64,000 nucleotides of DNA from the NCBI GenBank assembly GCA_045600105.1, contig JAZRXG010000049.1, positions 304 to 64,303 on the forward strand, read 5' to 3'. A model generated the notes under the pieces. It did not search any database, had not been told where the DNA came from, and saw only the letters and a program-made list of their open reading frames with translations. Below are positions 24,967 through 39,384 of the stretch, in pieces (positions within the stretch are counted from its first letter, which is position 1; every line of letters starts with the position of its first letter). This DNA comes from Eubacteriales bacterium (GTDB taxonomy: Bacteria; Bacillota; Clostridia; Oscillospirales; CAG-382). Position numbers and translations under genes: made by a program.

Positions 24967-25001
24967 GAAGCCTTCGCTTTAACGCGAAGGCTTCATTATT
25001 T
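24967..25001 (+). terminator. intrinsic terminator after the DUF3810-like gene
   Basis: 11 bp stem GAAGCCTTCGC/GCGAAGGCTTC (24967-24994) followed by ATTATTT. Confidence 0.65.
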
Positions 25002-25033: not shown

Positions 25034-25064
25034 AAAAAGGCACTCCAAGCGGAGTGCCTTTTTT
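25034..25064. terminator. bidirectional intrinsic terminator; ends the 12.6 kb minus-strand operon
   Basis: AAAAAGGCACTCC-AAGC-GGAGTGCCTTTTTT, 20 nt past the stop at 25084. Confidence 0.8.
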
Positions 25065-25083
25065 GATGAATTGTCGCTTTGTA

Positions 25084-26118
25084 TCAGCCGGTGATACCGC
25101 TGCGTTCGACGCCTTCGATGAGGGTTCTCTGAGCGAAGAGGTAAACGATAACGAGCGGGAGAAGGATCAGCAAGCCGCAGGTATTGCGGATAGCCGTTTC
25201 GTACAAGGTCTTTGCAGCGTATTCGGTATCGAGCGATTTCGGGATCGCAACGATATTCGGCAGAAGCTTGATCTTGTTGGTATCCTTGAAGAAGAGGCTG
25301 GTGTAGAAGGTATCGGTCCACTGCCACGAGAACGCGAACATGAAGATCGTTACCATCATAGGAACGGACATCGGAATGATTATTCTGACGAAGGTCTTGA
25401 AAACGCCTGCGCCGTCAACGTATGCGGCTTCTTCGAGTTCATCGGGAACGCCCTTGTAGTACTGACGCATAATGAAGATGAACAGACCGTTCTTGAATGC
25501 AAGACCGCAGAACGAAAGGATTCCGAGAGGCCAGTAGGTGTCAAGCAGGTTGGCGATCGCCGGAGTTGCCTCCGTGGACCCGAACAGCTTGGCAATGCCG
25601 CCGTAAATTCCCCAGATATCGAAATATCTGAATTTCATGAAGAGAGACATCTGAATCGACTGATGAGGGATTATCATGGTGATGATAACGAAGATAAAGA
25701 TGGTCTTCTTGAACTTGAAATTGAATTTGGCGAAGCCGTAACCGACTACGGACGCAATGAGCATCTGAACAACACCGCAGAGCACGGAAAGCGTGGTGGT
25801 GTTGAAAAGCGCCTGCCAATAGTGGTTGTCGTTGATGATCGCCTTGTAGGTATCGAGCGTAGGATAACGCGGGATAAGGTGGACGGATACGTCAACGAAG
25901 TCATCACGGCTCATGAACGAACCGGAGATCTTGGAAATGTACGGGAAGATGATGACGTAGGAAATACCTATGAGAAGTACCAGACGGAAGATGGTCCAAA
26001 GAACCTTTCCGAGGAAGTAGGTCGTAAGGTATTTATAACGCATCTTGACCCAAAACGGGGTCTTTTCGTCAAAGACGAGCATAGAGGGATCGCTTTTTTT
26101 GCTGTATGTTTTATCCAT
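25084..26118 (-). CDS. carbohydrate ABC transporter permease (MalG-like), pair 2
   Basis: EAA loop EAAYVDGAGVFKTFVRIIIP; six or more TM helices; 344 aa with an N-terminal extension. Confidence 0.9.
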   Translation of the reverse strand: MDKTYSKKSDPSMLVFDEKTPFWVKMRYKYLTTYFLGKVLWTIFRLVLLIGISYVIIFPYISKISGSFMSRDDFVDVSVHLIPRYPTLDTYKAIINDNHYWQALFNTTTLSVLCGVVQMLIASVVGYGFAKFNFKFKKTIFIFVIITMIIPHQSIQMSLFMKFRYFDIWGIYGGIAKLFGSTEATPAIANLLDTYWPLGILSFCGLAFKNGLFIFIMRQYYKGVPDELEEAAYVDGAGVFKTFVRIIIPMSVPMMVTIFMFAFSWQWTDTFYTSLFFKDTNKIKLLPNIVAIPKSLDTEYAAKTLYETAIRNTCGLLILLPLVIVYLFAQRTLIEGVERSGITG

Positions 26119-26130
26119 TGTATTCCCTCC

Positions 26131-27102
26131 TTAATCTCTTCTCTGATAGAAGATGTAAGCCGACAGGATACCTGCGACGAGCGCGAGTATCAATGCTACG
26201 AGCAGGAAGTATACCCAGCTCATTGCCGTGGCTCTTACCATACCGCCGGATCCGTTGAAGATGCCGTCGATGAATTTCATAACGGTGTTGGACTGAGACG
26301 TGAACGCGTCGATGACCGTATAGATAGTGTTGACGAGGATCATCGGAGAGATCATCGGGAAGGTTATCTTCCAGAAGGTTTCCCAAGCGCTGGCGCCTTC
26401 CATCTTACAGGATTCGTAGATGGCGGGTGAGATGGACTGAAGACCCGCAAGGAATATAAGCATCTGAACACCGGACTTATTGATTATATCGTAAACCGAG
26501 TTGACGATATCGACAACGTAATTGACGAGTTCCGTACCTACTTTCATGCTGCTGAAGAATCGCTGAACGTCCATTACGTTCAGTATCTGCTGTCCTGCGT
26601 TAGCGGCGTTTTCCATTACGTCCGAGTCCATATTCGTCATTGATTCCTGAACAGACGCGAGTGTGTTCTGGAGGTCGATGGATTCGACGATACCGGTGGA
26701 AACGATGACGGGGATGAAGAATATTGCTCTGAAGATCGCTCTGCCCTTCATTTTCTGGTTAAGAAGAACCGCCATGAAGAGCGAGAAAATAACGATCGCG
26801 GGAATGTTGAAGAGGAGCTCTTTAACACTCGTGATAAGCTTCTGAGTGAAGTCAGCGTTTTCGAGGAACGCGTATCTGAAGTTGTCAAGACCTACCCAGA
26901 TCTCCTCGTAACCGCCGCCTTTCATTGCTTTGGTTTCGATGAAGCAATACTTGATGGAGTCAAGTATCATGGGCATATAGATAAGCACGAAGCCGAGAAG
27001 GAAGGGTGCAATAAAGAACCAACCATAACGAGCTTTTTTCTTATCGAGGGATTTGCTCTTACGTTTCTTCGCCTTAACGGGCAATGTTTTTGCATTATCC
27101 AT
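26131..27102 (-). CDS. sugar ABC transporter permease (MalF-like), pair 2
   Basis: EAA loop ESCKMEGASAWETFWKITFP; 323 aa. Confidence 0.9.
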   Translation of the reverse strand: MDNAKTLPVKAKKRKSKSLDKKKARYGWFFIAPFLLGFVLIYMPMILDSIKYCFIETKAMKGGGYEEIWVGLDNFRYAFLENADFTQKLITSVKELLFNIPAIVIFSLFMAVLLNQKMKGRAIFRAIFFIPVIVSTGIVESIDLQNTLASVQESMTNMDSDVMENAANAGQQILNVMDVQRFFSSMKVGTELVNYVVDIVNSVYDIINKSGVQMLIFLAGLQSISPAIYESCKMEGASAWETFWKITFPMISPMILVNTIYTVIDAFTSQSNTVMKFIDGIFNGSGGMVRATAMSWVYFLLVALILALVAGILSAYIFYQRRD

Positions 27103-30100
27103 TTACGACTTCTCCTTTCTCTTCGGTATCTTCAACGGTGGTTTTAACGAAATCGTTTGCTTTGATCACGATCTCTTTGTCGCCGAAAGTTACTTCATAA
27201 TCGGTTTCGAGGTAGTTGATGAGGAATACCGTGCCGTTGTCGTAAGTTACCTTGACGACCTTCTTGTTGGGATCGAGGTACTCGTGACCTACGATGAGCG
27301 AATACTTGACATCCTTAAGAGCATTATTGAGGGTGTTGTAAGTATTCTTGATATCGTTGAACCAAATGGAATACTTGACGGAATAATACTTGGAAAGGAG
27401 GTAATTGCTGTTGTAGTTCTTGAGTTCGGAGGTATTTTCATAAGCGATCACGAAGAACGGATCCGCGCCGTTTTCGATCGTCTTGAGGAGCTGGTACTGA
27501 TAGTCGCCTGCGAGGTTGATCGCGGTGCCGGCGAAATCGATGTAGCCGTGGATGACCATTCCGTAGAAAGGAACGGATGCGCTGGTGTATTTGTAACGGG
27601 AGTCATCGAGAGGAACTTCAATGATATCCGTTACGTAGGGCCATACGTAGTAGTTACCGCCGGAAACAAGTACCTTGACATTGTCTTCTCTGATCTTCTT
27701 GATGAGTCTGGTAACGATCTTCTTGGAGTCTTCTCTGTTGAGAGGATCGTCTTCATTGAAGTCGGAGGAGAGGTACTGACCGAGGGTGGTGACCGCGATG
27801 CCGCCGATGTCGTACTTCTTATAATCCTTCATTGCCTTTTCGTAGAATTTTTCTACTACGTTGCTGGAGATTATACCAAGTCTGGCGTTGTTGTAGCCCT
27901 GATAGAGAGGATCGTAATAACGAAGTCCGGTAGAACGGTCATCGATGGTCTTCGCGAGATCGTCGCTGTCGAAGCCGTCGAACATTTCGTCTTTGGCTGC
28001 GAGAACGAAATCGAGGTTCGGGAAGAGCTGGATGTTTCCGTTTGCCTTATCGGCTGCGTAAGCAATGAGTTCTTTGAACTTCTTTTCGCCGCCGAGTGCG
28101 TCACAGATCTCGATTTCGGAAGGAACGAGCGGGATCATACCGTCGTTGCACCAGCCTTCCATAAGTACCTTCACGTTGGTGATGCCCGCCATTTCTTTGA
28201 GGTTGGTGAGTATCGTGATGGTATCTTCGAAGCTGGTAAGAGGAACACTCTTCGTTACGGGAACGCCGAGGAACGTCTTCTTGGTGTCGATGGCGCCGAG
28301 CGTCTGGATATAAAGAGGAATATCTTCCGAAGAATCGTTATCTTTTTCGAGTTTTGCGAAGTAGCCCTGATTTTCGAGGTAGTTTCTGTAGGTGTTTGCC
28401 ATACCTGCGATGGAAGCGTTTTCACCGTCGAGGATGAAAATTCTGAGTCCGTAGTCGCCGGTATATCTTCTCTTGGATTCAACGGTCCACATTGCGTCGG
28501 AGCCCGCGGAAATACCGCCGTTCAGTCTGTACGTGTCGCTGGGACGCGGGTTGAACGTGGTATACGCGGAAGCGTACATATGGAGCGAGCCGCCGTTGTT
28601 GACGGTGAGTTTTGCAAGAGAGTCGCCCGCGGTGAGCATTGCGAGATAACCGTAGTTGGTTTTGATGTCGCGGGTCTTTGTGATTTCGGTGACGATTTCT
28701 TCACCGGTTTCGGGGTCGATGACGACATCTTCGTCTGTGTATTCTTCATACGTTACGACGGTTTCGACCGCACCGAACGCAGGATATCTCACGACTTCCT
28801 TGCTGGCGCCCGAAATGGTGTGATACGCGAAGTCCGCACCGTAGATCTGGCTCGTAGTGGTGAACTGCTTGCCTGCGATATCCTTGAGTGAGAACATTGT
28901 ACCGGAACCGTCCGGAGAGAAGATGAAGCCTTCATCGTGGGTATCCACGGCGCCTGCATAAGGCAGGAAGGAAATGGACTGGAGAGTGTAGTTGGAAGAG
29001 TCGAATCTGATCTTGCCGGCGTTGAGTCTGATGTAAAGTCCGTTTTCGTCAAGCGTGTATTCAACCGCAAGCTTGAACAGAGCGGGGATCTTATCGTTTG
29101 CGGTGTACTCGGTTTCGGCATGGTCTTCTTCAAGACGTTCCTTGGAGTAGTCGGTATAAAGTTTGACGTACTGCTCGACCTTGCGGAGTTCGGCGGCCTT
29201 TGCGGTACCTTCGAATACCATTATCGCGAAGTTCTTGGTGCAGGGGAATTTTTCTTCGTTTTCCTTGAGGGTCTTATTGGATTTATCGCGCTGAGTGACT
29301 ACGTAGCTTTCGTAAACACCGGCGTAAATACCCCAGGCGCCCGGATCGGGAGGATTGGTCGCGAGGTAATCCTTCTTGGACTGGAAGAGATATTCCCAGG
29401 TAACGTCACTGATCGAATCTTTTCTGGTGGACTTGAAGGTGTCGCCCCAGGAAGTAAGCTGTTCTACGCTCGTAGCTCTGAGAGTGTAGTAAGCCATGAA
29501 GGTTCTGGTGACTTTGGATTTGGCGGAGTTCTCGGATATCTGAATGAGAAGCTCCATCCATTTGTCGAATCTGATCTGACGGGGAACGAGGTAGGTCGTT
29601 TCTTCACGTCCGATTGTGTATTCGACTCTGAGACCGCCGCGGATCTTCTTGCAGGTGATCTGATCGAAGAGAGCGGAGCTTGCGTAGGATTCAAGAGTGG
29701 TTTCGTTGGTGTTTTCCTGATATTTGATGACTATCTGGGAGAGGAGGGTCTTCTTGACGGAGACCGAAGTATCCTGCTCTTTTTCAACGGATTTACTCTG
29801 ACCTACCTTATAGGGGTTAGTGCAGTAGTAGCCGACGTATTTGTATACGCCGTTTTCATCCATTTCGTATTCGCCCTCGGCATTGGGAGGAGCGAGCTTG
29901 AGGCAGATGACTTCGCCGTTGAGGGGGTCGTTGTAAAGTGCGTAGCCTTCGTTTACGAGGATGAGCTCCATCTTTGCGATATTGGTGTCGCCGGCGATCC
30001 TTGCTTCAACGGAGTTGAACTCGGCGGAAGTATAGGCAGGATCGAGGGTGTCCCAGATATTGACGTTGGAGGAATCATCCGCTGCAAAAGAAACGGTGGA

Positions 30101-30169
30101 AAGGACGGACGGTGCAACGAACGTAAGTGCGAGGACAAGCACCAAAAGTGTTATAAGTGATTTTTTCAT
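27095..30169 (-). CDS. large secreted protein of unknown function, possibly glycoside-hydrolase-like (may correspond to DUF5696)
   Basis: Signal peptide MKKSLITLLVLVLALTFVAP...AADD; 1024 aa. The C-terminal half has alternating beta/alpha-like segments resembling a TIM-barrel glycosidase (EGWCNDG, VPFYGMVIHGY). The family name is from memory only. Confidence 0.75.
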   Translation of the reverse strand: MKKSLITLLVLVLALTFVAPSVLSTVSFAADDSSNVNIWDTLDPAYTSAEFNSVEARIAGDTNIAKMELILVNEGYALYNDPLNGEVICLKLAPPNAEGEYEMDENGVYKYVGYYCTNPYKVGQSKSVEKEQDTSVSVKKTLLSQIVIKYQENTNETTLESYASSALFDQITCKKIRGGLRVEYTIGREETTYLVPRQIRFDKWMELLIQISENSAKSKVTRTFMAYYTLRATSVEQLTSWGDTFKSTRKDSISDVTWEYLFQSKKDYLATNPPDPGAWGIYAGVYESYVVTQRDKSNKTLKENEEKFPCTKNFAIMVFEGTAKAAELRKVEQYVKLYTDYSKERLEEDHAETEYTANDKIPALFKLAVEYTLDENGLYIRLNAGKIRFDSSNYTLQSISFLPYAGAVDTHDEGFIFSPDGSGTMFSLKDIAGKQFTTTSQIYGADFAYHTISGASKEVVRYPAFGAVETVVTYEEYTDEDVVIDPETGEEIVTEITKTRDIKTNYGYLAMLTAGDSLAKLTVNNGGSLHMYASAYTTFNPRPSDTYRLNGGISAGSDAMWTVESKRRYTGDYGLRIFILDGENASIAGMANTYRNYLENQGYFAKLEKDNDSSEDIPLYIQTLGAIDTKKTFLGVPVTKSVPLTSFEDTITILTNLKEMAGITNVKVLMEGWCNDGMIPLVPSEIEICDALGGEKKFKELIAYAADKANGNIQLFPNLDFVLAAKDEMFDGFDSDDLAKTIDDRSTGLRYYDPLYQGYNNARLGIISSNVVEKFYEKAMKDYKKYDIGGIAVTTLGQYLSSDFNEDDPLNREDSKKIVTRLIKKIREDNVKVLVSGGNYYVWPYVTDIIEVPLDDSRYKYTSASVPFYGMVIHGYIDFAGTAINLAGDYQYQLLKTIENGADPFFVIAYENTSELKNYNSNYLLSKYYSVKYSIWFNDIKNTYNTLNNALKDVKYSLIVGHEYLDPNKKVVKVTYDNGTVFLINYLETDYEVTFGDKEIVIKANDFVKTTVEDTEEKGEVVNG

Positions 30170-30190
30170 AATACTTTTTCCTTCCTTTCT

Positions 30191-32392
30191 TTATGATACG
30201 CGGAACGAGATCTCGGCGTAAATGTTGTAGAAGAACGTGTAGACCTTGGTAAGAAGCGTACCGAAGAGGATTATGATGAACATAATGAACGCGGCGCCGA
30301 CTATCGTACCGATGGTCGTAAGAACGTTTTTACCGAGCGTGTAATCGTGAATGACCATCATTCCGAAGAACACGAGAAGTCCGAGCCAGAAGAACGCAAC
30401 GGAGTTGACGAGGGAAAGAATTCCCATTTCTTCAATAGTGACGATGTTGGAAAGCCAGATGGTGGGGAGAATGAGGAGAGGAAGCGGAGTCAGCGAATAG
30501 CAGGTCGCAATGTAGACGTCCTTATAGGTTCCTTCTCCGTCGAACAGAGTGGTAAGGCACCAGTTTGCGGTGACCCAGAGGAACAGAGGAAGCAGTACCG
30601 AAAGGATCTCGGTTACATAGCTTACGTTTGCTCCGTAGGGGTTATAGAGATAGCCGCGGCCCACTGCCTGGTAGATGAACACGAGTACCGTGGTGCAGAG
30701 AATGATGGTCGCACCGCGGACACCGCCGCGTTTTTCATGTTTCAGATCCCAGAAACCGTCGAACGGGTGGAATATGACATGGAACGCGTAAAGAAGTTCT
30801 TCTTTGATGGTTCTCTTCTCTTTGTAAACACGGCCCTGTGCGTTGACCTTGTTTGCCCATTTGAAGAGGAGGCTGACAGCCACGCAGAATACTATGACTA
30901 CGAGAGGAACGATAAGGATCCACTTCTCTACCCAGTCTTTTCTGTATTCGGCATAGGCTTTGGAGTAGTTTTCGGTATCGTACGCGCTCTTGTAATAAGT
31001 CATTGCTTCGGTGAATTTGCCGTTTCTGTAAAGGGTATCACCGATGCCGACGTACGCTTTGTCGTAGTTGTTGTTTCTCTGAAGGATGGACTTGTAGTAG
31101 TTGACTGCTTCGTCGTAGTTCTGATCTTCGGTATTCTGAAGAGCGGCTGCGAGAAGGTCGCCGTAGCTCGTACGTTTGAAAACTGTAACGGAGTTTGCGG
31201 TGGAGTCAACGAGAAGGAGATTGGTTCCCTGATATGCGATGGCGATGAGGTTCTGTACGAGACCGACCTGGTCGCCCTTGTCACCGAACGCGAAGAGGAG
31301 GTTGCCGTTGGAGTCGTAAGTGAATACGCGGCTTCTCTTCTGGTCGGCGATGGACCACATACCGTTGGGGCCGAGTGCTACGTCCACGATGGTGGAGCAG
31401 CCGTAGGAAGCATAGGAGGAGTCGGCATAGCTCGTAACGTCCACTTCGCCGGAAGGCGGATAGAAGCCGTTTCTCTGAAGAACGTCACTTCCGCTCGGGT
31501 TGAGCTTCTTGACGGGAGCTTTGTCGGAAAGTTTGGACTTGCCGTTGATGGCAGCCTGCTGTTCGCCTTCATCGATGGAAGAAAGCGTTACGTAGAGGAA
31601 GCCGTCGGGGTCTATCGTGATGTTGTTATATTCGGTAGGAACGTAACGGATAGAAGCGGCGAGCTGTTCCTGAGTCTTGAACTTTCTCCAGAAGAGGTCC
31701 AGAAGGCTGTAGGTAACCTTCTGAGGTCCGATGAATGCGTTGAAGGAACCGTCACGGTTCATGGAGATGACACCGTAGTTGGTGGTGGAAGATACGACGT
31801 AGATGGTTCCGGCAGAGTCGGTGGCAACGGCGATGGGCTTGTAAACGTCGCTGAAGAGGTCACCGGTAGGCTGAGGAACGATCATCTTGAAGTTACCGAT
31901 CTTATCGAAGATGACGATACGGGATTTTTCGGTATCGGCAACGATTATTTCGGTATCGGAAACGTAAACGCCGGAGGGAGAGGAAAGTGCGTCGGGAACG
32001 CCCATCTGGTTGACGAAAGTGCTGATTATCAGACGAAGATTGTAGTTTTCGTCAAGGCAGATGACTCGTCCGTTGGAGCCCGCGGCTCCTTTATCGACGA
32101 TGTAGATGTAGCCGAGACCGTCTACACAGATATCGGAAACGGCTTCGATGTCGGTCCAGGTCTCGGCGTAAAGCTGAGACGCCATTTCGTTGACCTTGGA
32201 CGCAAGGCCTTCCTGAATGGAAGCCGAGGTGATGACTTTGACGGGGACGTATGCGTCGGGACTGGTCTGCTTTTTGCCGTTGACGTCGTAGGTGTAGCTG
32301 ATATACGGGATAAGAGCGTTAGCAACGACACCGCCGAGCAGGATCATAAGGCAGACAGTCAGAAGCAATACTTTTGTAAATCTTGATTTCAT
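30191..32392 (-). CDS. membrane protein fusing an NHL-repeat beta-propeller, TPR repeats and a C-terminal Yip1-like polytopic domain
   Basis: N-terminal signal/anchor. About six NHL-like blades (e.g. GVYVSDTEIIVADTEKSRIVIFDKIGNF). TPR (YDEAVNYYKSILQRNNNYDKAYVGIGDTLYRNGKFTEAMTYYKSAY). Then roughly six hydrophobic helices. Confidence 0.8.
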   Translation of the reverse strand: MKSRFTKVLLLTVCLMILLGGVVANALIPYISYTYDVNGKKQTSPDAYVPVKVITSASIQEGLASKVNEMASQLYAETWTDIEAVSDICVDGLGYIYIVDKGAAGSNGRVICLDENYNLRLIISTFVNQMGVPDALSSPSGVYVSDTEIIVADTEKSRIVIFDKIGNFKMIVPQPTGDLFSDVYKPIAVATDSAGTIYVVSSTTNYGVISMNRDGSFNAFIGPQKVTYSLLDLFWRKFKTQEQLAASIRYVPTEYNNITIDPDGFLYVTLSSIDEGEQQAAINGKSKLSDKAPVKKLNPSGSDVLQRNGFYPPSGEVDVTSYADSSYASYGCSTIVDVALGPNGMWSIADQKRSRVFTYDSNGNLLFAFGDKGDQVGLVQNLIAIAYQGTNLLLVDSTANSVTVFKRTSYGDLLAAALQNTEDQNYDEAVNYYKSILQRNNNYDKAYVGIGDTLYRNGKFTEAMTYYKSAYDTENYSKAYAEYRKDWVEKWILIVPLVVIVFCVAVSLLFKWANKVNAQGRVYKEKRTIKEELLYAFHVIFHPFDGFWDLKHEKRGGVRGATIILCTTVLVFIYQAVGRGYLYNPYGANVSYVTEILSVLLPLFLWVTANWCLTTLFDGEGTYKDVYIATCYSLTPLPLLILPTIWLSNIVTIEEMGILSLVNSVAFFWLGLLVFFGMMVIHDYTLGKNVLTTIGTIVGAAFIMFIIILFGTLLTKVYTFFYNIYAEISFRVS

Positions 32393-32404
32393 TCGTATTC
32401 CTCC

Positions 32405-33295
32405 TTAGTCTTTCATGCCCGATGCAGACATTGTCTGAAGTATGTTGGATTGCGTGATGACGAATACCAGGATAGGTACGATCATCATTACAACGGTGGA
32501 AGCAGCGCTGACGCCGGTACGGGAAATACCGGAGTTGACGAGCTGGCTTATTGCGTAGTTGAAGGTCTTGAGCTGTTCGCTGTAGATGTAGGTACTCGAA
32601 CCGGTGTTCCACAGATCCTTGAACGCGAACACTATAAGAGTGAGCCACGCGGGTTTGACCATCGGCATTGCGATGACCCAGAAGATCTTGGTTTCGGAAG
32701 CACCGTCAAGTCGTGCGGATTCGAGGACCGCGTCGGTAACGGAGGTTTCCATGAACTGCTTCATGAGGAACAGACCGTAGGTCGTGCAGAACGCGGGGAT
32801 GATGATTGCGAAATAGGTATCTACCCAACCGAGCCAGGACATGAGGATGAAGTTGGTGATGCCGGCAACGGTGGAGTTGAACATGAGGGAGTAGGTGACC
32901 ATCTTGAAGAGGCCTTTTCTTCCGGGGAACGGGATCTTGGAAAGCGCGTAAGCCGCGTAGGAAGCAAGAAGAACGTTGCCCGCGGTACCAACCACGGAAA
33001 TGAGGATGGTATTGAAAATGTATCTGGAGAAAGGCACCCAGCTGTCGCCCATGAGTCTGAACAGGTCGGAGAAGTTCTTGAGGGTCGGGTTGGTAGGAAT
33101 AAGACGCGGCGGGAATACCCAGAACTCTTCAAGAGGCTTGAGCGACTGACCGATAGCGTAGATGAGAGGCAGTACCATCAATGCGCCGAATACGCCGAGT
33201 ATGATGTATATCGCGATATCGCCCTTGACGGAGCGGTTGACGGAACGTTTGAACTGTTCCTTCGGCTGTTTTGCTTTTTTGCTGAACAACGCCAT
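32405..33295 (-). CDS. carbohydrate ABC transporter permease (MalG-like), pair 1
   Basis: EAA loop ESARLDGASETKIFWVIAMP; 296 aa. Confidence 0.9.
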   Translation of the reverse strand: MALFSKKAKQPKEQFKRSVNRSVKGDIAIYIILGVFGALMVLPLIYAIGQSLKPLEEFWVFPPRLIPTNPTLKNFSDLFRLMGDSWVPFSRYIFNTILISVVGTAGNVLLASYAAYALSKIPFPGRKGLFKMVTYSLMFNSTVAGITNFILMSWLGWVDTYFAIIIPAFCTTYGLFLMKQFMETSVTDAVLESARLDGASETKIFWVIAMPMVKPAWLTLIVFAFKDLWNTGSSTYIYSEQLKTFNYAISQLVNSGISRTGVSAASTVVMMIVPILVFVITQSNILQTMSASGMKD

Positions 33296-33296
33296 A

Positions 33297-34241
33297 TCAT
33301 GTACCTACCTTTCTGAGGAGTTTATTGACAAGCATGTTGCAGCCTATCATCATTAGGAAGAGTATGGTAGCGATGGCGGAAGCGTAGCCCATTTCGAATC
33401 GTGTCCAGCCATAGTCGTCCAAATGGTGCATTATCGTGTGCGCGCAGTAGTTCGGGCTCGGGAAACCGACGAGTGCGGTAATGACTCCGCCGAAGCTGAA
33501 CGAACCGGTAATCGCGAGGATAGCGGAAAGGAGAAGCTGAGGACGCATATACGGAAGAGTGATGAACCAAAGTTCCTGCCAGCGGTTCTTGACACCGTCG
33601 ACTGCGCCTGCCTCGTAAAGCGACTTATCAACGACCTGGAAGCCGGCGATAAGGGTAAGGAACGAGGTGCCCAAGCTGGTCCAAAGAGCTATCGCTATGA
33701 TGAGAGGTACGATGTATTCCTCGTTGGAGAACCAGAGTATCGGTTTGTTGATGAAGCCGAGCTTCATGAGCCAGGCGTTTGCGAAACCGTACTGGTCGCC
33801 GGAGAAGAAGACCGTCCAGATGAGGTATACGTTGCCGGAGATGGAGGGTGCGTAGTAAAGAAGAGTAACGACTGCTCTTACCTTAGGTCTGAGTTCGTTG
33901 ATGAACCACGCGAAGAACAGGGACAGCAGATAGGAGCCCGGACCTGTTACGGACGCGAACACGAGGGTGTTCTTGATCGCGGTAAGGAATATTTCGTCGT
34001 CGAGGAAGAGTCGGATATAGTTATCGAGGAAAACGATATCGGGTGCTTCCAGAAGGTTGAAGGTTGTGAAACCGAGGAGGAACGAGAACACGACGGGAAG
34101 AACGGTGAACATGAAGAAGAGTATGAAGAAGGGGGCGATCATAAGATACGCGACCTTATATTTCTTCATTTCCCTGAGAGTCCACTTGAACTTCGACATG
34201 TCTTTTCGTATGACTACCTGGTCTTTTTCTTTCTTTGACAC
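33297..34241 (-). CDS. sugar ABC transporter permease (MalF-like), pair 1
   Basis: EAA loop EAGAVDGVKNRWQELWFITLP; 314 aa. Confidence 0.9.
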   Translation of the reverse strand: MSKKEKDQVVIRKDMSKFKWTLREMKKYKVAYLMIAPFFILFFMFTVLPVVFSFLLGFTTFNLLEAPDIVFLDNYIRLFLDDEIFLTAIKNTLVFASVTGPGSYLLSLFFAWFINELRPKVRAVVTLLYYAPSISGNVYLIWTVFFSGDQYGFANAWLMKLGFINKPILWFSNEEYIVPLIIAIALWTSLGTSFLTLIAGFQVVDKSLYEAGAVDGVKNRWQELWFITLPYMRPQLLLSAILAITGSFSFGGVITALVGFPSPNYCAHTIMHHLDDYGWTRFEMGYASAIATILFLMMIGCNMLVNKLLRKVGT

Positions 34242-34258
34242 TTTTATATCCTCCTCTC

Positions 34259-37200
34259 TCAGTTATTTTCCTTAGCAGAATCCGCGGCTCTGATATCCTC
34301 CTGAGTGGGAAGACCGAACTCTTTACGTTTTCTGGTAAGTTCGTTGTTTATATCTACTATATAGGAAAGCATTTCGGTAACGGGATCCGCGTTATCGTTG
34401 TAAACGTCGAGGAACGCGAAGTTGGTGTAACGTCCGATGATGTAGCTTCCCGGGAATTCGGGGGTACATTCAACGGCGTTGAACTGTGCCATGAGGTTAT
34501 CCATTTCATCCTTGGACCAGGACATCGTGGTGAGAGCTTCGATGTTTGCGGTCGCCTGTTTTGCGGACGGTCCGAGGAGGGCTTCCATTTCGTTGCCGAA
34601 GGCTGCCTGAACTTCCGCGTTCGTGAACCACTGCATGAAGATCCAAGCGGTGAACGCGTTTTCGTCGGTGACGGAACGCATGAGGATCATGGTGGAAACG
34701 GATGCCACCGTGGTATTGTCGATGGTCTTGCCGTCTTCAAGCACGGTGCCGGGAAGCGGAGTGAATTCCCACAGACCTGCGATCTCGGGAGCGAATACGA
34801 TCAGCGTGTTGTAGGTGCCGGAGTAATCCGCGACCGCAAGAGGCATCGTACCGTCTCTGAAACGGTCGGCAAACGTGTAGCTTACCGGGAAGTCGTACAT
34901 CGTGAAGTACTGGCAGACTTTCTTGAACGCGGAGAGCGATTCGTTGGAGTCGAGGTTGATCGTCATACCGTCGGTCTTCGGGCGGATCACTTCATTGCCC
35001 TCGTCGTCGACTACGGTGTAAACGTTCTTGGTGTATTCACCGGTCGCTTCGTCGTATCCGAAGAGCTCGGGATAATTCTCGAGGTAGTAATCGTAGTTGC
35101 CCATATCGTAGAGGGGTTCGCCGATCTGATACATGAGTATCATGGATCCGCCGGTGCCGGTCGGGAAGCCGATGTTGAGGTTGTTCGCCTGAAGCGCGGA
35201 AATGACCTCTTTGAACTGGTCCCAGGTATTAGGCACATTGAGTCCCATTTCTACGAATATGTCTTTGCGGTAGAAGAGCATCGGGAAGGACATCGTGACG
35301 GGGATCGCGTAGGTTTCACCGTAAAGAGTGATGGGCGTGATGGCCGCCGGAGCGAAACGCTTGAACGTCTCGTCAAATGTGTCAACGTAACCGGATTCTA
35401 TCGCCTGCTTATAAGCGGGGTTGTTCTCGAACTTGGAGAAGTCGTTGAAGTTGTAGCCCCTCTTGGGATCGTCCGTGTTGAGCGCGTATACCGCGGAACG
35501 GATGGCGTAGTTGACAGGTGTCGACTGGTCGATGTTCATCGCTATATCGGGTCCCGTGCCGGCAAGGGTCGCAGGCAGAAGCGTACTGCCTATAACGAGC
35601 TTGACGTTGACCGGAACGTTGTATTTTTCCATGAAGTCGTCATCTACGAGCTTTTTGATGATCTGAGCCTGGTCACGGCTGGAAGCGGTCCAGACTTCGA
35701 TTCCCGCTTTTTCGATCGCTTTGAGTTCTTCCTCAGTCAGGTTGCTGGTAGAGCTGATGGAGTTGTAGTCTGCAACGAAGGAAACGAAGAATTTCTTGAC
35801 TTCGTTGACGACCTTCTTCCAGAAGCCTGCTTCTGCCTTCGGGATCTTGGCGTCAACCGGCTGAACGAGGATGTAGTCGATCTCAAGCGGCTGGCTCTGC
35901 GTATCGGTGAGCCAGGAGCCGAGTGCCGCGAGGTAATCCTTCATCTGAGAAAGGAGAGCGGCGATCTTGTTGGGATGGGTACCCATTTCTTCGATGGTGG
36001 TCGCGACTCTTTCGAGAGTACCGTTGTTGCTTCCGCGGACGCCGGTAACTTCGGTAAGTCTCGCGGAAACGTCCTTCAGTTCCTGAGCGCTCTTCTTGAG
36101 GCCTTTGAGAACGTCGGGCATGATCTTCTCGAACTGATAGTCACGGTATTCATCGGGATCGGGACCGGTGAGCATCAATATCTTTCTGTAATACGCGTTG
36201 CAGTTGGTAAGCGTGTTTTCAACGCTGCTGAGGATCTCGGACATATCGCCGAGAACGACCTCGAATCTGACGGTGTTGACACCCTTCTCGAGATAGAACT
36301 TGAAGTCCTTTCTCTTGGTATCAAGCTCTGCTTTGCCGTCGTACATGCCGCCGGTCTGCCACGAGTCATCGTAGTTGAAACGGCAGTTGGCTGCCTCGGC
36401 AAACGGAACTTCACCGTTTATGTAGATCTTTCTCGAAACGTACATACCTTCCATGATGGACTGCTTGTATCTGAGAACGATGTTATAGAAGCCGTCTTCG
36501 GGGACGTCGATCTCGTATTCGATCCACTGACCGACGTAAGTCCACTTATCGCCGCCGATGCTGTTCAGTCTCTGGAGAGCCGCGTCCTGCGGTTCGCTGA
36601 TGGCGGAAGTTCTGTCGTTGAGCTGATAGATAGTCTTATCGGAAGTGAGGGTCGGGTATTCGCCCTGGACCTTGATCGCATTTCCGGAATAGTCGTTTGC
36701 GCCAGCGTGGCTTGCAAGATACTCGGCGTAAGTCGGAAGCGCGGCGGAGGGGCAAAGTCTGATGCTCTTTACCGCGACGGGCTCACGAATGGTCGAGAAG
36801 GTGATGACGTGCTCGCCTTTGGTAAGCGCGAAGCGGAGCGGATCGGGATAGTATCCGGCGGAATCGCAGAGATACTTGGTGTACCAGTTGTCGCGAAGCT
36901 CCTTGTTGGGCTTCATTTCGTTTCCGGCGTTATCGCGCTGGAAAATACGTACGTTGGCACTCTGATCTCTCGCGGCGTCGGTGAATCTCGAATCCGAAGT
37001 ATCGAAAGTGACTTTTCTTTCTTTTCCGTCGGCACCTTTTTCGTAAACGGCTTTGTAACCGTTATCCTTGTCAACGACGTTGTATACGTCGGTCCAGCTT
37101 CTCGTAAGAGAGATGGAACGCGCTTCCTTGTATGGAACGGCGCCGTCTATGAGGATGATCCTTTCGATGTCGGTGGATTTGCCTTCGATCACGGCTTCTC

Positions 37201-37648
37201 CCGATTCGTCGTTGATAACGATGTTGCCGGTCCAATATTCGAACTCGATGCAGTAGAACGCATCTTCGGGAACATTGACCTTGAACGATACCTTACCGTC
37301 GTCGCCCATAAGAAGGACTTTGCCGTCGGTACCGTACTTGCTGCCGTCATCAACAGCTACGGTCGCAGTCGTTTCGTCGGCGAAATACTTGGTAACGTCG
37401 ACGTCAAGGCTTGATTTCGCATTTCCGAAAACCTCGGCGTTTTCTTCAATGTAGTCGGCATAACTCTTTGAAGTCAGAACGCTTTTGATTTCCGAGAGCG
37501 AGGTTCTTACCAGCGAATCCGACCCGTTTACGCTTTCAACGAGTGCATTCGCCGAGATGTCGGCCACGGTGAGGCAGCTTGTCAGTACGAACAAGAATGC
37601 CAGACAGAAACCGAGCATCCGCTTGAGTGGATTTTTCAGTTTGCTCAT
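34259..37648 (-). CDS. giant lipoprotein: two CBM-like modules plus a helical region plus a family-1 extracellular solute-binding domain
   Basis: Start set to ATG 37648, with AGGAGG 6 nt upstream. Lipobox LTSC. Two beta-sandwich-like modules (DAFYCIEFEYWTGN.., DGFYNIVLRYKQS..). C-terminal SBP-like region (GPDIAMNID, TWDQFKEVISALQ). 1129 aa. Confidence 0.85.
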   Translation of the reverse strand: MSKLKNPLKRMLGFCLAFLFVLTSCLTVADISANALVESVNGSDSLVRTSLSEIKSVLTSKSYADYIEENAEVFGNAKSSLDVDVTKYFADETTATVAVDDGSKYGTDGKVLLMGDDGKVSFKVNVPEDAFYCIEFEYWTGNIVINDESGEAVIEGKSTDIERIILIDGAVPYKEARSISLTRSWTDVYNVVDKDNGYKAVYEKGADGKERKVTFDTSDSRFTDAARDQSANVRIFQRDNAGNEMKPNKELRDNWYTKYLCDSAGYYPDPLRFALTKGEHVITFSTIREPVAVKSIRLCPSAALPTYAEYLASHAGANDYSGNAIKVQGEYPTLTSDKTIYQLNDRTSAISEPQDAALQRLNSIGGDKWTYVGQWIEYEIDVPEDGFYNIVLRYKQSIMEGMYVSRKIYINGEVPFAEAANCRFNYDDSWQTGGMYDGKAELDTKRKDFKFYLEKGVNTVRFEVVLGDMSEILSSVENTLTNCNAYYRKILMLTGPDPDEYRDYQFEKIMPDVLKGLKKSAQELKDVSARLTEVTGVRGSNNGTLERVATTIEEMGTHPNKIAALLSQMKDYLAALGSWLTDTQSQPLEIDYILVQPVDAKIPKAEAGFWKKVVNEVKKFFVSFVADYNSISSTSNLTEEELKAIEKAGIEVWTASSRDQAQIIKKLVDDDFMEKYNVPVNVKLVIGSTLLPATLAGTGPDIAMNIDQSTPVNYAIRSAVYALNTDDPKRGYNFNDFSKFENNPAYKQAIESGYVDTFDETFKRFAPAAITPITLYGETYAIPVTMSFPMLFYRKDIFVEMGLNVPNTWDQFKEVISALQANNLNIGFPTGTGGSMILMYQIGEPLYDMGNYDYYLENYPELFGYDEATGEYTKNVYTVVDDEGNEVIRPKTDGMTINLDSNESLSAFKKVCQYFTMYDFPVSYTFADRFRDGTMPLAVADYSGTYNTLIVFAPEIAGLWEFTPLPGTVLEDGKTIDNTTVASVSTMILMRSVTDENAFTAWIFMQWFTNAEVQAAFGNEMEALLGPSAKQATANIEALTTMSWSKDEMDNLMAQFNAVECTPEFPGSYIIGRYTNFAFLDVYNDNADPVTEMLSYIVDINNELTRKRKEFGLPTQEDIRAADSAKENN

Positions 37649-37732
37649 AGTGATCCTCCTGCGTGAGATTTGGCAGTAAAACGGCGCATTTTCCGTCACG
37701 GATATGCAATACACCGAATTTAATTACGCTAA

Positions 37733-37761
37733 ATTATACCCTGCGTCAGTCATTTTGTCAA
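37733..37761 (-). promoter_or_regulatory. consensus sigma-A promoter of the 7-gene ABC/NHL-Yip1 operon
   Basis: On the minus strand, TTGACA (37756-37761), a 17 nt spacer, then TATAAT (37733-37738), giving a leader of about 75 nt. Confidence 0.7.
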
Positions 37762-38051
37762 GTGTGCATATAATATATGAGGCTTTTTTAGGCACTTTAA
37801 CTTGATTCGGTCCCGTTTCGGCGGTCTCTTCCCTTTTCGGGCAAAAAAGACGGTATGTGCAATTTGACATTGTCAAAATCGCCACACTTTTGCGTCTGTA
37901 TTTTCCAACCCGAAAAATGCCGTACGGCTCCCCGTATTTTCCGCCCCGAAAAGTCCTTGAAATATGGGAACGCAAACGTATTATTATATAAATATCATAT
38001 CCGAATTTGACGGTGCGGGCCGCGGTTGATAAATTTCGTTAAATTTTAATT

Positions 38052-38105
38052 TTAGACAAAAATATACAACCCCGTTTCAGACGGAGTTGTATGTGAATTT
38101 TTTTA
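38052..38105. terminator. bidirectional intrinsic terminator downstream of the VanY-like gene
   Basis: ATACAACCCCGT-TTCAG-ACGGAGTTGTAT stem (one mismatch) flanked by A-run and T-run. Confidence 0.6.
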
Positions 38106-38211
38106 TTTGATTTTTTGTCCGAATCCGTCGATTTTCGTGGTAATGTTGCACAAAAATCGCGGAGATATTTCTACCTATCCAAAATTTCAACAAAACATTT
38201 GTTCACGGTGC

Positions 38212-38274: not shown

Positions 38275-39300
38275 TCAGTCGTTGACGAGTCCTGCCATAA
38301 CGGTCACGATAAAGCCTTCGGAATTGTCGCCCGAGATGGTGTAATCGCAGTTTTCGGGTATCTTGATCTCGGTATCTCCGGACGTATTCGCCTTTACGTA
38401 ATAGATGTAATAGCGTTTTCCTTCGGAGTTTATCGAATAATAATTGTCGTAAGTAAAGCGTTTGCAGAAGTCGATGTATTCTTCAAGGCACTGGTTGTTG
38501 AGCTTCATAAGGAAGGCGTGCGGTCTGCCGACGTATCTGAAAAGCGAATCAGAACCGTCGTGAAGAGTAAGTGATTTTCTGCCGTTGGGGTATCTGAGGA
38601 TAAAGCCGTATTTGCTGCAGTTCTCGGCAAGCCAAGTGAATTTTCCGTCGCTCAGACTTCCCTCTTCAGCCGGGTAGACGGTGCACATGAACGAAAGACC
38701 GGTATTGAGGTCGCTGCCGCCCGCCATATCGGAATCTTTTCCCGACGAATAGCGTTCAGCCTGATCGGATTCGCTCCTGAAACCGTAGGTGACGGTGAGC
38801 GCGTTGCTTCCGGTATAGGAATTGAGCGCCGCCATCATCGAATTGAGGGACGGAAGAACATCGAAAGATATCTGCAGTTCGAGGTCGCGGAGCTTGAAGA
38901 CCTTGCTCGTGTACTCGGAATAATTGCTGAATTTCATCAGCTTGGGGGTATTTGCGAAATCGAATTTCCGGTCGTTGTTGACAACGATGAGGTCGCCCTT
39001 GTGGATATCGGAGTACGGGACCTTGACGGTATCGTACTTCAGCACGGGTTTTGGCGCGTCGCCGGAAGTTTCGGCGGGAAAAGATTCTTCGGACGTGTCG
39101 CCGAACGGTTCCGACGTATCGGAAGACGTTTCGGAGGACTTTTCCGCTTGTTCGGAAACGTCACTGCTGTCTTCCTCGACCGATTTTTCAAACATGAAAT
39201 TCGCGAGTAATACCGACAGTATTACGACGATGACGCCGAAGCAGGCGACTACCGCTATAAGGTTTATGAAGCTGTAACTGTTTTTTGCCTGTTTGCCCAT
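38275..39300 (-). CDS. VanY/LdcB-like (M15B) D,D-carboxypeptidase family protein, probably catalytically inactive
   Basis: Membrane anchor, acidic S/E/D-rich linker, then a VanY-like core (YGFRSESDQ, GFILRYP, FRYVG). Start set to ATG 39300, with AAAGGAA 8 nt upstream; the ORF-track start is 39318. Confidence 0.75.
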   Translation of the reverse strand: MGKQAKNSYSFINLIAVVACFGVIVVILSVLLANFMFEKSVEEDSSDVSEQAEKSSETSSDTSEPFGDTSEESFPAETSGDAPKPVLKYDTVKVPYSDIHKGDLIVVNNDRKFDFANTPKLMKFSNYSEYTSKVFKLRDLELQISFDVLPSLNSMMAALNSYTGSNALTVTYGFRSESDQAERYSSGKDSDMAGGSDLNTGLSFMCTVYPAEEGSLSDGKFTWLAENCSKYGFILRYPNGRKSLTLHDGSDSLFRYVGRPHAFLMKLNNQCLEEYIDFCKRFTYDNYYSINSEGKRYYIYYVKANTSGDTEIKIPENCDYTISGDNSEGFIVTVMAGLVND

Positions 39301-39384
39301 TGGTGACGTTCCTTTCATATATAATAATGATACGTGAATAAATCACCGCCGCGCCAAGCGCGGCGGTGATTACCGAAACCGGGA

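Follow-up and report, generated by a model that had tools for sequence, protein, structure and literature searches.

We analyzed a window of 64,000 nucleotides (the whole stretch of DNA under study) and identified in it a seven-gene cassette on the minus strand, in which a gene for a membrane protein with NHL, TPR, and Yip1 domains (hereafter NHL-TPR-Yip1) lies between two pairs of ABC permease genes. Listed from the 5' end of the operon, the genes and their flanking signals are:

37733..37761, minus strand: promoter-like TTGACA-17-TATAAT element (12/12) ahead of the SBP gene, found by consensus scan
34259..37714, minus strand: giant solute-binding lipoprotein (SBP), operon gene 1, with SBP_bac_8 at residues 764-1056 of 1151 amino acids
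33297..34241, minus strand: permease A1 (UgpA/MalF-like), with BPD_transp_1 and NCBIfam UgpA and GlcT
32405..33295, minus strand: permease B1 (UgpE/MalG-like), with BPD_transp_1 and NCBIfam UgpE and MalG
30191..32392, minus strand: NHL-TPR-Yip1 membrane protein gene, an uninterrupted ORF of 733 amino acids plus stop
27095..30169, minus strand: DUF5696 exoprotein of 1024 amino acids with a Sec-type N-terminus, matching PF18952 at E 1e-142
26131..27102, minus strand: permease A2, overlapping the DUF5696 stop by 8 nt, with BPD_transp_1 and NCBIfam UgpA
25084..26118, minus strand: permease B2 (MalG-like), with BPD_transp_1 and NCBIfam MalG and UgpE
24967..24994, minus strand: terminator-like hairpin past permease B2, an 11-bp stem plus T run

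Judging from the sequence, the true start of the SBP is likely the ATG at 37648, which would give the protein an LTSC lipobox. The DUF5696 gene starts 21 nt past the stop of the NHL-TPR-Yip1 gene. Contigs of two gut metatranscriptome runs, 95-98% identical to this DNA, span 25046-37705; they stop near 37705 and at approximately 25046, while a DNA run continues upstream of 37705. The operon contributes one giant SBP and two permease pairs (four BPD_transp_1 permeases) of a CUT1-type importer, in agreement with an initial annotation of this DNA that had placed the NHL-TPR-Yip1 gene inside an ABC importer operon. A tblastn search with the UgpC protein of Paenibacillus detected no ABC ATPase in the 64-kb window or in loci L001-L082, and we assume that the ATPase is encoded elsewhere as an orphan of the shared type. 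No CAZyme gene adjoins the cassette within the window.

Distribution and gene order of the cassette

Homology searches returned more than 2370 full-length homologues of the 733-amino acid protein, and at least 592 stretches of a species-genome collection matched the gene. In a library clustered at 50% identity, 1339 clusters matched at E<=1e-30, most of them over the full length. The fusion described in the initial annotation is not unusual: the fused form proved to be the commonest in this very large family. The order SBP-permA1-permB1-NHL-TPR-Yip1-DUF5696-permA2-permB2 was kept in 80 of the 80 loci fetched, as far as their contigs reach, and every cassette part was present at >=80% coverage in 50 loci. 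The co-occurrence with the neighboring permeases that the initial annotation had proposed to check was observed throughout these 80 loci, where the gene is always flanked by the same two permease pairs.

The same layout was found at 56%, 45%, 33% (Butyrivibrio), and 26% identity (Paenibacillus), and in the relatives at 26-33% identity (Paenibacillus, Butyrivibrio, and other Lachnospiraceae) the gene still lies between the permease pairs. Across the window, the 80 loci, and distant examples of both fused and split form, a giant SBP usually heads the cassette. In Paenibacillus (26% identity), where RefSeq names the copy "YIP1 family protein," ugpC is located directly upstream of the cassette. 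The cassettes of relatives are adjoined by GH43, GH5, and GH3 genes; for example, at a locus of 31% identity the permease, Yip1-fusion, and DUF5696 genes are succeeded by GH5, GH3, and GH5 genes. At loci with visible regulation, the cassette is flanked by HK/RR or LacI genes of their own. The NHL-TPR-Yip1 gene is a fixed part of a seven-gene sugar-uptake cassette common in gut and soil Firmicutes, and the gene in the window is one ordinary copy of this widespread system. Literature searches found no paper describing the cassette, and none that links NHL repeats, ABC transporters, and polysaccharide utilization; the name "YIP1 family protein" led to eukaryotic, bacteriocin, and YknW papers only.

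A second gene arrangement was identified in Lachnospiraceae, in which an NHL/TPR gene and a separate, overlapping Yip1 gene of 206-213 amino acids occupy the position of the fusion. In each of the three split loci examined, the NHL/TPR gene (491-501 amino acids) precedes the Yip1 gene with a 22-nt overlap, and in Butyrivibrio the split point corresponds to the cytoplasmic loop just past the second transmembrane helix. Stand-alone Yip1 proteins of 206-213 amino acids make up at least 512 clusters, and one exact sequence of this kind is listed in 1032 blocks of an assembly collection. These genuine stand-alone forms appeared only when the Yip1 protein of Butyrivibrio was used as query: with the excised Yip1 domain, the top 120 matches all came from the same long family, as fragments or with frameshifts, and two candidates located on long contigs (L083 and L084) turned out to be disrupted versions of this cassette. 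The presence of fused genes in some lineages and split genes in others argues that the two halves work together.

Architecture of the NHL-TPR-Yip1 protein

Pfam NHL, TPR_19, and Yip1 models all scored above their cut-offs in the 733-amino acid product, and its elements follow one another in this order along the full-length AF2 model, which is of moderate confidence only (pLDDT 71.5):

32312..32383, minus strand, residues 4-27: TM1, N-terminal anchor behind a short K/R-bearing cytoplasmic tip (hydropathy peak 2.49; AF2 helix 4-19)
31169..32311, minus strand, residues 28-408: six-bladed NHL beta-propeller, extracytoplasmic (PDB profile matches, Foldseek, AF2 strands)
30920..31168, minus strand, residues 409-491: about 2.5 TPR repeats in five helices (TPR_19, consensus-TPR PDB matches, AF2 helices)
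30845..30919, minus strand, residues 492-516: TM2, which takes the chain back to the cytoplasm (hydropathy peak 3.23; AF2 helix 494-519)
30722..30844, minus strand, residues 517-557: cytoplasmic segment that opens the Yip1 domain and contains the invariant motif HPFDGFWDLKHEKRG (8 K/R in 41 residues)
30194..30721, minus strand, residues 558-733: five-helix Yip1 membrane bundle (Pfam Yip1, AF2)

Six hydrophobic helices follow the TPR stretch, namely TM2 and the five of the Yip1 domain. Hydropathy combined with the K/R pattern assigned K/R-containing loops to the cytoplasm and loops without any K/R to the outside, and the predicted topology is that of a seven-helix membrane protein. In this topology, the propeller and the TPR repeats are extracytoplasmic and are kept close to the membrane by TM1, the least conserved part of the protein (0.44), and TM2. 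The initial annotation had read the product as a 733-amino acid protein with an N-terminal anchor, about six NHL-like blades with a repeated pattern, a TPR stretch behind them, and roughly six hydrophobic helices with a Yip1-like first cytoplasmic loop, the propeller and TPR stretch being extracytoplasmic, and had proposed Pfam searches for the three domains. This reading was borne out by the ORF and TM1, by the three Pfam models, and by the agreement of Pfam, hydropathy and charge, and AF2 on the extracytoplasmic architecture; the strand, which the annotation did not give, is the minus strand.

The NHL model (PF01436) matched residues 136-162 (E 1.2e-7; 31.8 bits against a cut-off of 20). When the family profile was compared with the PDB, it matched the Pizza designs (1e-36) and the PknD sensor (1rwi; 9e-14), as well as Brat and TRIM71, and the matches to Pizza6, Brat, TRIM71, and PknD fell in 3-5 stretches. 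Foldseek aligned the propeller with the NHL domain of TRIM71 at E 4e-14 (TM-score (target) 0.76). Six repeats could be read by eye (IVD..GRVICL, VAD..SRIVIF, YVVS..YGVISM, YVT..PVKKL, IAD..SRVFTY, and LVD..NSVTVF), the AF2 model of the propeller has six blades, and the N-terminal strands 32-54 probably close the ring. Conservation reaches 0.78-0.80 in blade 4b and blade 5. The propeller also carries two conserved non-canonical inserts (residues 222-257 and 292-316), which are modeled poorly in AF2 (223-256 and 306-329). In the adjoining TPR stretch, TPR_19 matched residues 422-468 (27.4 bits against a cut-off of 25), the other TPR models of Pfam staying below their own cut-offs, and in the PDB comparison with the family profile, residues 422-473 matched consensus-TPR proteins. 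The last of the five AF2 helices between residues 409 and 491 continues into TM2.

The Yip1 model (PF04893) matched residues 537-707 over almost its whole length (profile positions 1-172 of 173; E 4.6e-14; 53.1 bits against a cut-off of 28.6), and the predicted topology places a cytoplasmic segment ahead of five transmembrane helices. Modeled alone, the domain reached a pLDDT of 87 and a pTM of 0.81, with helices at residues 558-577, 592-617, 623-647, 653-682, and 686 onward. The motif HPFDGFWDLKHEKRG sits in a K/R-rich loop that is predicted to be cytoplasmic, within the segment of highest conservation in the protein (0.88; among 80 sequences, 12 of its 24 positions never vary); P-x-DGF is retained down to 26% identity. 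Further invariant stretches are found in the cytoplasmic loops of the bundle, NWCLTTLF-x-GEG..KD (610-625) and HDY (682-684), where conservation is 0.81-0.85. The invariant cytoplasmic residues include D545, G546, N610, G619, E620, G621, D625, H682, and Y684. Mean conservation is 0.81-0.88 in the cytoplasmic segments 534-557, 618-625, and 682-689 and 0.47-0.48 in the outside loops; by this comparison of sequences, no part of the protein is more conserved than the predicted cytoplasmic face of its Yip1 domain. A Foldseek search of the PDB with the Yip1-domain model gave no fold match (best E 0.64, TM-score <0.3), and the whole-family profile found no solved Yip1 relative there.

DUF5696 and rate covariation within the cassette

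The gene downstream of NHL-TPR-Yip1 encodes a DUF5696 protein, a family on which our literature search found no paper. A DUF5696 family profile built from 18 sequences matched the GH129 enzyme NagBb (5wzn; E 2e-7) and DagB (5opq; 6e-4) in the PDB, while phmmer with a single DUF5696 sequence gave no PDB match; the profile matches suggest that DUF5696 is a distant GH129 relative. In Paenibacillus and in locus L087, DUF5696 carries its own N-terminal helix anchor and could do without a docking partner.

We also analyzed evolutionary-rate covariation between the cassette proteins in 51 taxa. The ectodomain covaried most with DUF5696 (partial r 0.71), compared with 0.36 for the Yip1 domain of the same gene and 0.15 for the adjacent permease B1, values derived from distance matrices that are phylogenetically non-independent and could be inflated by the shared recombination history of neighbors. 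The C-terminal half of DUF5696 covaried with every part of the fusion (0.43-0.52), blades 1-3 covaried with the SBP (r 0.40-0.46), and the SBP and permeases A1 and B1 formed a separate module. Adjacency of the genes, which may contribute to the signal, leaves unexplained why 0.71 exceeds both the 0.36 within one gene and the 0.15 for adjacent permease B1. These values point to DUF5696, rather than the permeases, as the closest partner of the ectodomain.

Known relatives and candidate functions

Parts of this arrangement resemble known systems. YknW is a Yip1 protein reported to modulate the assembly of the ABC transporter YknXYZ and not to transport anything itself (PMC4887032), and in Bacillus YknWXYZ, as in the cassette, a five-helix Yip1 protein shares one operon with ABC membrane components; such co-encoding was seen at every locus, although the type of transporter differs from that of YknW. 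YknW stands alone at approximately 200 amino acids and acts together with a membrane-fusion protein and an exporter of the MacB type, whereas NHL-TPR-Yip1 has, or in split forms is paired with, a 460-amino acid NHL/TPR ectodomain and is encoded in the cassette of a type I (MalFG-like) importer that includes a GH129-like partner. Yip1 genes also adjoin HlyD/ABC genes in bacteriocin clusters (PMC10707071). Eukaryotic YIPF proteins start with a cytoplasmic segment, behind which come five transmembrane helices (PMC6682643). NHL-TPR-Yip1 shares this layout and the Pfam Yip1 domain with the YIPF/Yip1p Golgi proteins, but it is only distantly related to them in sequence, is fused to a propeller, and is tied to an ABC importer; no Rab/Ypt partners are known in bacteria.

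CUT1 (TC 3.A.1.1) importers that use a shared MsmX/MsmK/UgpC-type ATPase resemble the cassette in their SBP lipoprotein, MalF/MalG-like permeases, and operon devoid of an ATPase gene. Unlike the described CUT1 systems, the cassette has two permease pairs, an SBP of approximately 1000-1150 amino acids, and two or three constant extra genes (NHL/TPR, Yip1, and DUF5696) between the pairs. PknD of Mycobacterium tuberculosis (1rwi) likewise has a transmembrane anchor that displays a six-bladed NHL propeller outside the membrane; the two propellers matched in Foldseek at E 3.8e-9 with a TM-score (target) of 0.71, and the Pizza designs were derived from that of PknD. The propeller of PknD is coupled to a cytoplasmic Ser/Thr kinase, whereas that of NHL-TPR-Yip1 carries a pair of long conserved inserts, is fastened by two helices, and has a Yip1 bundle on the cytoplasmic side. 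Assignment to a family of PknD-like receptors was rejected because Pfam and NCBIfam identified no kinase or other output domain.

On balance, we consider it probable that NHL-TPR-Yip1 is a fixed accessory subunit of a twin ABC sugar importer, and we infer that it serves as a scaffold or adaptor tying DUF5696, and perhaps the SBP, to the translocators. The ectodomain would hold the DUF5696 enzyme, and possibly the SBP via blades 1-3, at the cell surface above the translocators, and glycan cleavage would thereby be coupled to uptake. The Yip1 bundle would anchor this unit in the membrane beside a translocator, where the cytoplasmic motifs P-x-DGF, N-W...G-x-G..D, and H-x-Y-T may contact a cytoplasmic partner, either a shared MsmX/UgpC-type ATPase or the coupling loops of the permeases. 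Such a contact would resemble the modulation of YknXYZ assembly by YknW, a loose analogy since the partner of YknW is a MacB-type exporter and not a type I importer. Since no relative of the Yip1 fold has been solved, structures offer no mechanism to borrow, and the scaffold role is not structurally favored over a channel role.

The initial annotation had proposed a substrate-presenting, gating, or sensing subunit rather than a classical transporter part. The accessory-subunit element of this proposal is supported by the position of the gene in all 80 loci. Ligand binding by the propeller, gating, and sensing would be conjecture, and the protein has no recognizable output domain. DUF5696, the constant neighbor, had been left unweighed. 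A sensor or gate, in which the ectodomain would bind glycan or loaded SBP and the Yip1 domain would switch the ATPase or translocators allosterically, is in our view unlikely. Among bacterial structures, the extracellular sensor domain of PknD is indeed the nearest relative of the propeller, conservation peaks where the Yip1 domain faces the cytoplasm, which is what a conserved intracellular contact would produce, and the covariation of blades 1-3 with the SBP (r 0.40-0.46) fits such a role. However, Pfam and NCBIfam identified no kinase, HTH, or cyclase output domain, the visible regulation is encoded by separate HK/RR or LacI genes beside the cassette, and the ectodomain covaries most with DUF5696 and not with the SBP or the permeases.

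It is still less likely that the propeller is a surface enzyme (a lyase, lactonase, or esterase comparable to Vgb lyase, PAL, or SMP-30/gluconolactonase) for which the Yip1 domain is a mere anchor. Foldseek also matched virginiamycin B lyase and PAL (E 1e-8 to 1e-7), but with target TM-scores of 0.58-0.61, against 0.70-0.79 for the best matches, which are non-catalytic binding propellers. A weak tblastn match to an SMP-30/gluconolactonase-family protein and weak SGL Pfam matches on split homologues are consistent with an enzyme, as are the many invariant Asp, Asn, and Glu residues of the blades; yet most of the invariant acidic residues occupy structural VAD or F-D positions of the NHL repeats, the ectodomain has no invariant His or Cys, and the highly conserved cytoplasmic face would be superfluous for a plain anchor.

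Least probable of all, and only marginally credible to us, is a Yip1 domain that forms its own channel or secondary transporter for a cleavage product or an ion, with the propeller as external filter and a merely metabolic link to the ABC importer, since the arguments of a YIPF review that the polar five-helix bundles of these proteins might act as channels or transporters, and its mention of profile similarities between Yip1-clan families and permeases (PMC6682643), together with the invariant polar residues N610, C612, T614, T615, E655, and H682 inside or ending helices, are opposed by conserved residues that cluster on the cytoplasmic surface and not along a membrane-spanning path, by five helices being few for a transporter, by the Foldseek search that gave no transporter-like fold (best E 0.64, TM-score <0.3), and by the two complete translocators already in the cassette.

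ABC importers are the main route by which Firmicutes of the gut and rumen acquire plant and host glycans, but their surface organization is far less understood than that of the Sus systems of Bacteroidota. The cassette is very common and contains three constant proteins of undescribed function, and a 2019 review listed bacterial Yip1 domains as lacking any reported function. An understanding of NHL-TPR-Yip1 would offer a testable function for these domains and would also explain how extracellular cleavage is coupled to uptake. Cultured carriers suitable for genetics are Paenibacillus cellulosilyticus KACC 14175, with the fused gene HUB94_RS00505, and Butyrivibrio fibrisolvens D1, with the split genes WAA20_RS20530 and WAA20_RS20525. 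A bolder form of the scaffold reading, which we regard as possible but doubtful, would make NHL-TPR-Yip1 the hub of a cleave-and-import machine in monoderms that docks DUF5696, as a new GH129-related glycosidase family, and the giant CBM-bearing SBP over two ABC translocators, its Yip1 face coupling to the shared ATPase. If this were true, a prokaryotic Yip1 domain would for the first time have a mechanistic role in an importer, and the cassette would parallel the Sus-like systems of Bacteroidota in function.

Domain architecture and predicted topology of the NHL-TPR-Yip1 protein

The gene under study is a single uninterrupted ORF of 733 codons, running from 32392 down to 30191 on the minus strand. 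Analysis of its product identified three Pfam matches above curated cut-offs, including: NHL (residues 136-162, 31.8 bits, cut-off 20); TPR_19 (residues 422-468, 27.4 bits, cut-off 25); and Yip1 (residues 537-707, profile positions 1-172/173, E = 4.6e-14, 53.1 bits, cut-off 28.6). Against the PDB, a profile of 23 family members aligned in several segments with six-bladed NHL propellers of known structure: the Pizza designs (1e-36), 1rwi, which is the sensor domain of M. tuberculosis PknD (9e-14), and Brat and TRIM71 (~1e-14). It also matched consensus TPR proteins over residues 422-473, while its Yip1 part matched no solved structure. In the full-length AF2 model (pLDDT 71.5), six blades of four strands each lie within residues 85-407, residues 409-491 form five TPR helices, and six long helices follow; the N-terminal strands 32-54 probably close the propeller ring. 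Foldseek related the model to the TRIM71, Brat, Thin, and PknD propellers (E down to 4e-14, TM-score (target) 0.70-0.79). On this evidence, the initial annotation was correct in describing an NHL propeller and TPR repeats joined to a Yip1 domain.

Hydropathy and charge analysis predicted seven membrane helices:

Predicted segments of the protein (residues)
4-27: TM1, preceded by a short K/R-bearing N-terminus
Between TM1 and TM2: propeller and TPR, 466 residues without a hydrophobic stretch
492-516: TM2
After TM2: loop of 41 residues with eight K/R, followed by five further helices

Loops 581-591 and 648-654 carry zero K/R and are assigned outside, while 618-625 and 682-689 bear K/R and are assigned inside. 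Under the positive-inside rule, this K/R distribution predicts an extracytoplasmic propeller and TPR and a cytoplasmic position for the motif HPFDGFWDLKHEKRG. The first strand begins just four residues after TM1, and TM2 directly continues the last TPR helix; the propeller-TPR ectodomain, fixed to the membrane at both ends, is thus predicted to sit near its outer face. Some family members of 778-780 aa (L011:11450-12334, P0076, P0078, and P0080) carry a C-terminal tail of ~45 extra residues with an additional hydrophobic helix after Yip1, which would return the C-terminus to the cytoplasm.

In an alignment of 80 sequences, the best conserved stretches are the three cytoplasmic-face segments of Yip1: 534-557 (conservation 0.88, 12 invariant positions), 618-625 (0.85), and 682-689 (0.81). 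The two outside loops (0.47-0.48) and TM1 (0.44) score lower. The motif core (P-x-DGF; N-[WY] at the TM4 end; G-x-G..D; H-x-Y-T) is kept down to 26% identity. Ectodomain conservation peaks at blade 5 (0.80) and at a non-canonical blade 4 stretch, APVKKLNP..R.G..PPSGE (0.78), which is modelled in part only; pLDDT is below 50 at residues 306-329 and likewise in much of the insert 222-257. Inserts that are conserved yet escape modelling typically serve as partner-binding surfaces, and we infer that those of this protein may do so.

The Yip1 domain alone was modelled with confidence from 49 sequences (pLDDT 87, pTM 0.81), and Foldseek found no neighbor for this model in the PDB (best E = 0.64, TM-score <0.3). 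Its layout, a cytoplasmic N-segment and five helices, is that described for eukaryotic YIPF proteins; a 2019 review of these proteins stated that prokaryotic members had no known function (PMC6682643).

Operon organization and transcription

The gene is the fourth of seven on its strand, spaced by 1-21 nt or overlapping:

Features of the operon (all on the minus strand)
37761-37733: promoter-like sigma-70 consensus, TTGACA-17-TATAAT (12/12), before the SBP gene
37714 (GTG of the mechanical ORF) or 37648 (likely ATG, followed by a lipobox, ..FLFVLTSC): start of gene 1, a 1151-codon SBP ORF with an SBP_bac_8 domain in its C-terminal part
Genes 2-3: UgpA/MalF-like permease (A1) and UgpE/MalG-like permease (B1)
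Gene 4: NHL-TPR-Yip1 protein
Gene 5: DUF5696 protein, 1024 aa (E = 1e-142), with a Sec-type N-terminus
Genes 6-7: second UgpA-like permease (A2) and second MalG-like permease (B2, 25084-26118)
24994-24967: hairpin and T run

Since the ATG at 37648 leads into a typical lipoprotein signal, the real product of the giant SBP gene is probably a 1129-aa lipoprotein. No ABC ATPase gene was found anywhere in the 64-kb window.

Two gut metatranscriptome runs yielded contigs 95-98% identical to the span 25046-37705 and ending there, with essentially zero contig coverage of 37763-38200, a region that a DNA run covers and extends upstream. This difference is consistent with a transcript starting at the 37761-37733 promoter and with in vivo transcription of the seven genes from it; the evidence is at the contig level, comes from a related strain, and may include DNA carry-over.

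No CAZyme or regulator gene flanks the window copy of the cassette, so its context does not indicate a substrate. Directly upstream (38275-42927) lie PFOR and VanY-like genes, also present in most relatives of at least 54% identity where the contig reaches (loci L001, L004-L012, L014-L017, L020, and L023) and absent in more distant ones.

A widespread family in fused and split forms

A word-indexed search with the protein returned 2370 matches, the best 120 of which are all 626-780 aa long (55-98% identity), with NHL plus Yip1 in almost all. An exhaustive search of 50%-identity representatives gave 5290 clusters at E<=1e-3, of which 1339 reach E<=1e-30; among the best 150 clusters, 135 are 665-998 aa long and most cover nearly the entire query, down to 31% identity. 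At least 592 stretches of the species-representative genome collection encode a relative, and the 80 best all belong to uncultured gut members of the Clostridia, Oscillospiraceae, or 'Eubacteriales'. With these numbers, the NHL-Yip1 fusion is the normal architecture in a large family and not a rarity.

We compared nine window proteins with all fetched loci by tblastn. The initial annotation had placed the gene within an ABC importer operon, and rather than occurring independently of ABC permeases it keeps the order SBP, A1, B1, fusion protein, DUF5696, A2, B2 wherever the contig reaches, down to 47% identity of the fusion protein, with every part at >=80% coverage in 50 loci. Beyond the clade, the same layout surrounds a 998-aa variant (45% identity) and, in Paenibacillus cellulosilyticus, a fused 719-aa copy (26% identity; 'YIP1 family protein' in RefSeq) with ugpC directly upstream. 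In locus L087 (1243-10273), a fused copy (31% identity) and DUF5696 are directly followed by GH5, GH3, and GH5 genes in place of the second permease pair, the contig ending before any such pair; this variant of the cassette is linked to the breakdown of beta-glucan or cellulose. In a plasmid collection, DUF5696 occurs only in two records, both with an adjoining Yip1 gene.

In Lachnospiraceae the protein is split. In Butyrivibrio fibrisolvens D1, HK, RR, and GH43 are followed by a giant SBP, two permeases, and separate NHL (498 aa) and YIP1 (206 aa) proteins, after which come DUF5696, two more permeases, and two more SBPs. All three split loci examined have an NHL/TPR gene (491-501 aa) that overlaps the Yip1 gene after it by 22 nt, with DUF5696 next in line and a permease pair on each side of the group; GH43 and giant SBP genes lie upstream. 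A three-way alignment places the split in the cytoplasmic loop immediately past TM2, leaving a two-anchor ectoprotein and a Yip1 protein that starts at the conserved cytoplasmic helix. With the Butyrivibrio Yip1 as query, proteins of a uniform 206-213 aa were recovered in at least 512 clusters, and one exact stand-alone sequence occurs in 1032 blocks of an assembly collection. Fused and split forms sharing one operon position are a classic sign that two halves work as a single physical unit. One MAG (L084:5944-8073) has its break elsewhere: a 322-aa piece with NHL and a 330-aa piece with TPR and Yip1 are separated by 168 nt, probably through a frameshift or an error of assembly and not as a third natural form.

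Candidate partners and role in sugar uptake

A single-sequence search of the PDB with DUF5696 gave no match. An 18-sequence profile matched the GH129 alpha-N-acetylgalactosaminidase NagBb (5wzn, E = 2e-7, profile 492-623, chain 220-360) and, more weakly, the GH129-like 3,6-anhydro-D-galactosidase DagB (5opq, 6e-4). Together with the GH43, GH5, and GH3 neighbors in relatives, this supports a putative role of the cassette in glycan processing and uptake. DUF5696 is enlarged to 1498 and 1978 aa in two loci (L060:12172-16665 and L073:12162-18095), compared with 940-1080 aa elsewhere, which points to additional modules in these exoproteins.

Kimura distances for each cassette protein in 51 taxa, correlated as residuals after removal of the common signal, gave two modules as leads, as these matrix correlations ignore phylogenetic dependence and their Mantel p (0.001) are not true probabilities. 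The first comprises SBP, A1, and B1 (partial r 0.61-0.74). In the second, the ectodomain correlates with DUF5696 (0.71), A2 (0.47), and Yip1 (0.36), and Yip1 with DUF5696 (0.46), while the ectodomain reaches just 0.15 with the adjoining B1. Adjacency alone does not explain why the ectodomain follows DUF5696 more closely than Yip1 within its own gene. When the permeases serve as background, blades 4-6 (0.52), blades 1-3 (0.46), TPR (0.44), and Yip1 (0.43) all correlate with the C-terminal, GH129-like half of DUF5696; blades 1-3 do so with the SBP as well (0.40-0.46). Distances of permease B2 and its orthologues in 50 loci correlate poorly with those of all the remaining cassette proteins (raw r 0.12-0.27, vs 0.5-0.85 among the others), which may reflect either different constraints or exchange between cassettes.

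The analysis establishes the domain architecture, the predicted topology, the strict membership of the operon, the fused and split forms, and the pattern of conservation. Beyond these, we lean toward a scaffold or adaptor, in which the ectodomain would keep DUF5696 (and perhaps also the SBP) positioned above the translocators, and the Yip1 domain would anchor the unit beside a translocator and contact a cytoplasmic partner. A ligand-dependent gate or sensor seems unlikely; a catalytic propeller is more doubtful, and a channel formed by Yip1 is the least probable.

A link between Yip1 and ABC machinery recurs: YknW, the only studied bacterial Yip1 case, modulates assembly of the YknXYZ ABC exporter (PMC4887032), and bacteriocin clusters contain Yip1 genes alongside HlyD/ABC genes (PMC10707071), whereas here the partner is a type I importer. 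Our literature search found no mention of DUF5696 and no NHL/Yip1 component described for sugar ABC systems. The window thus carries one ordinary copy of an accessory module of CUT1 sugar importers that is widespread and has no described function.
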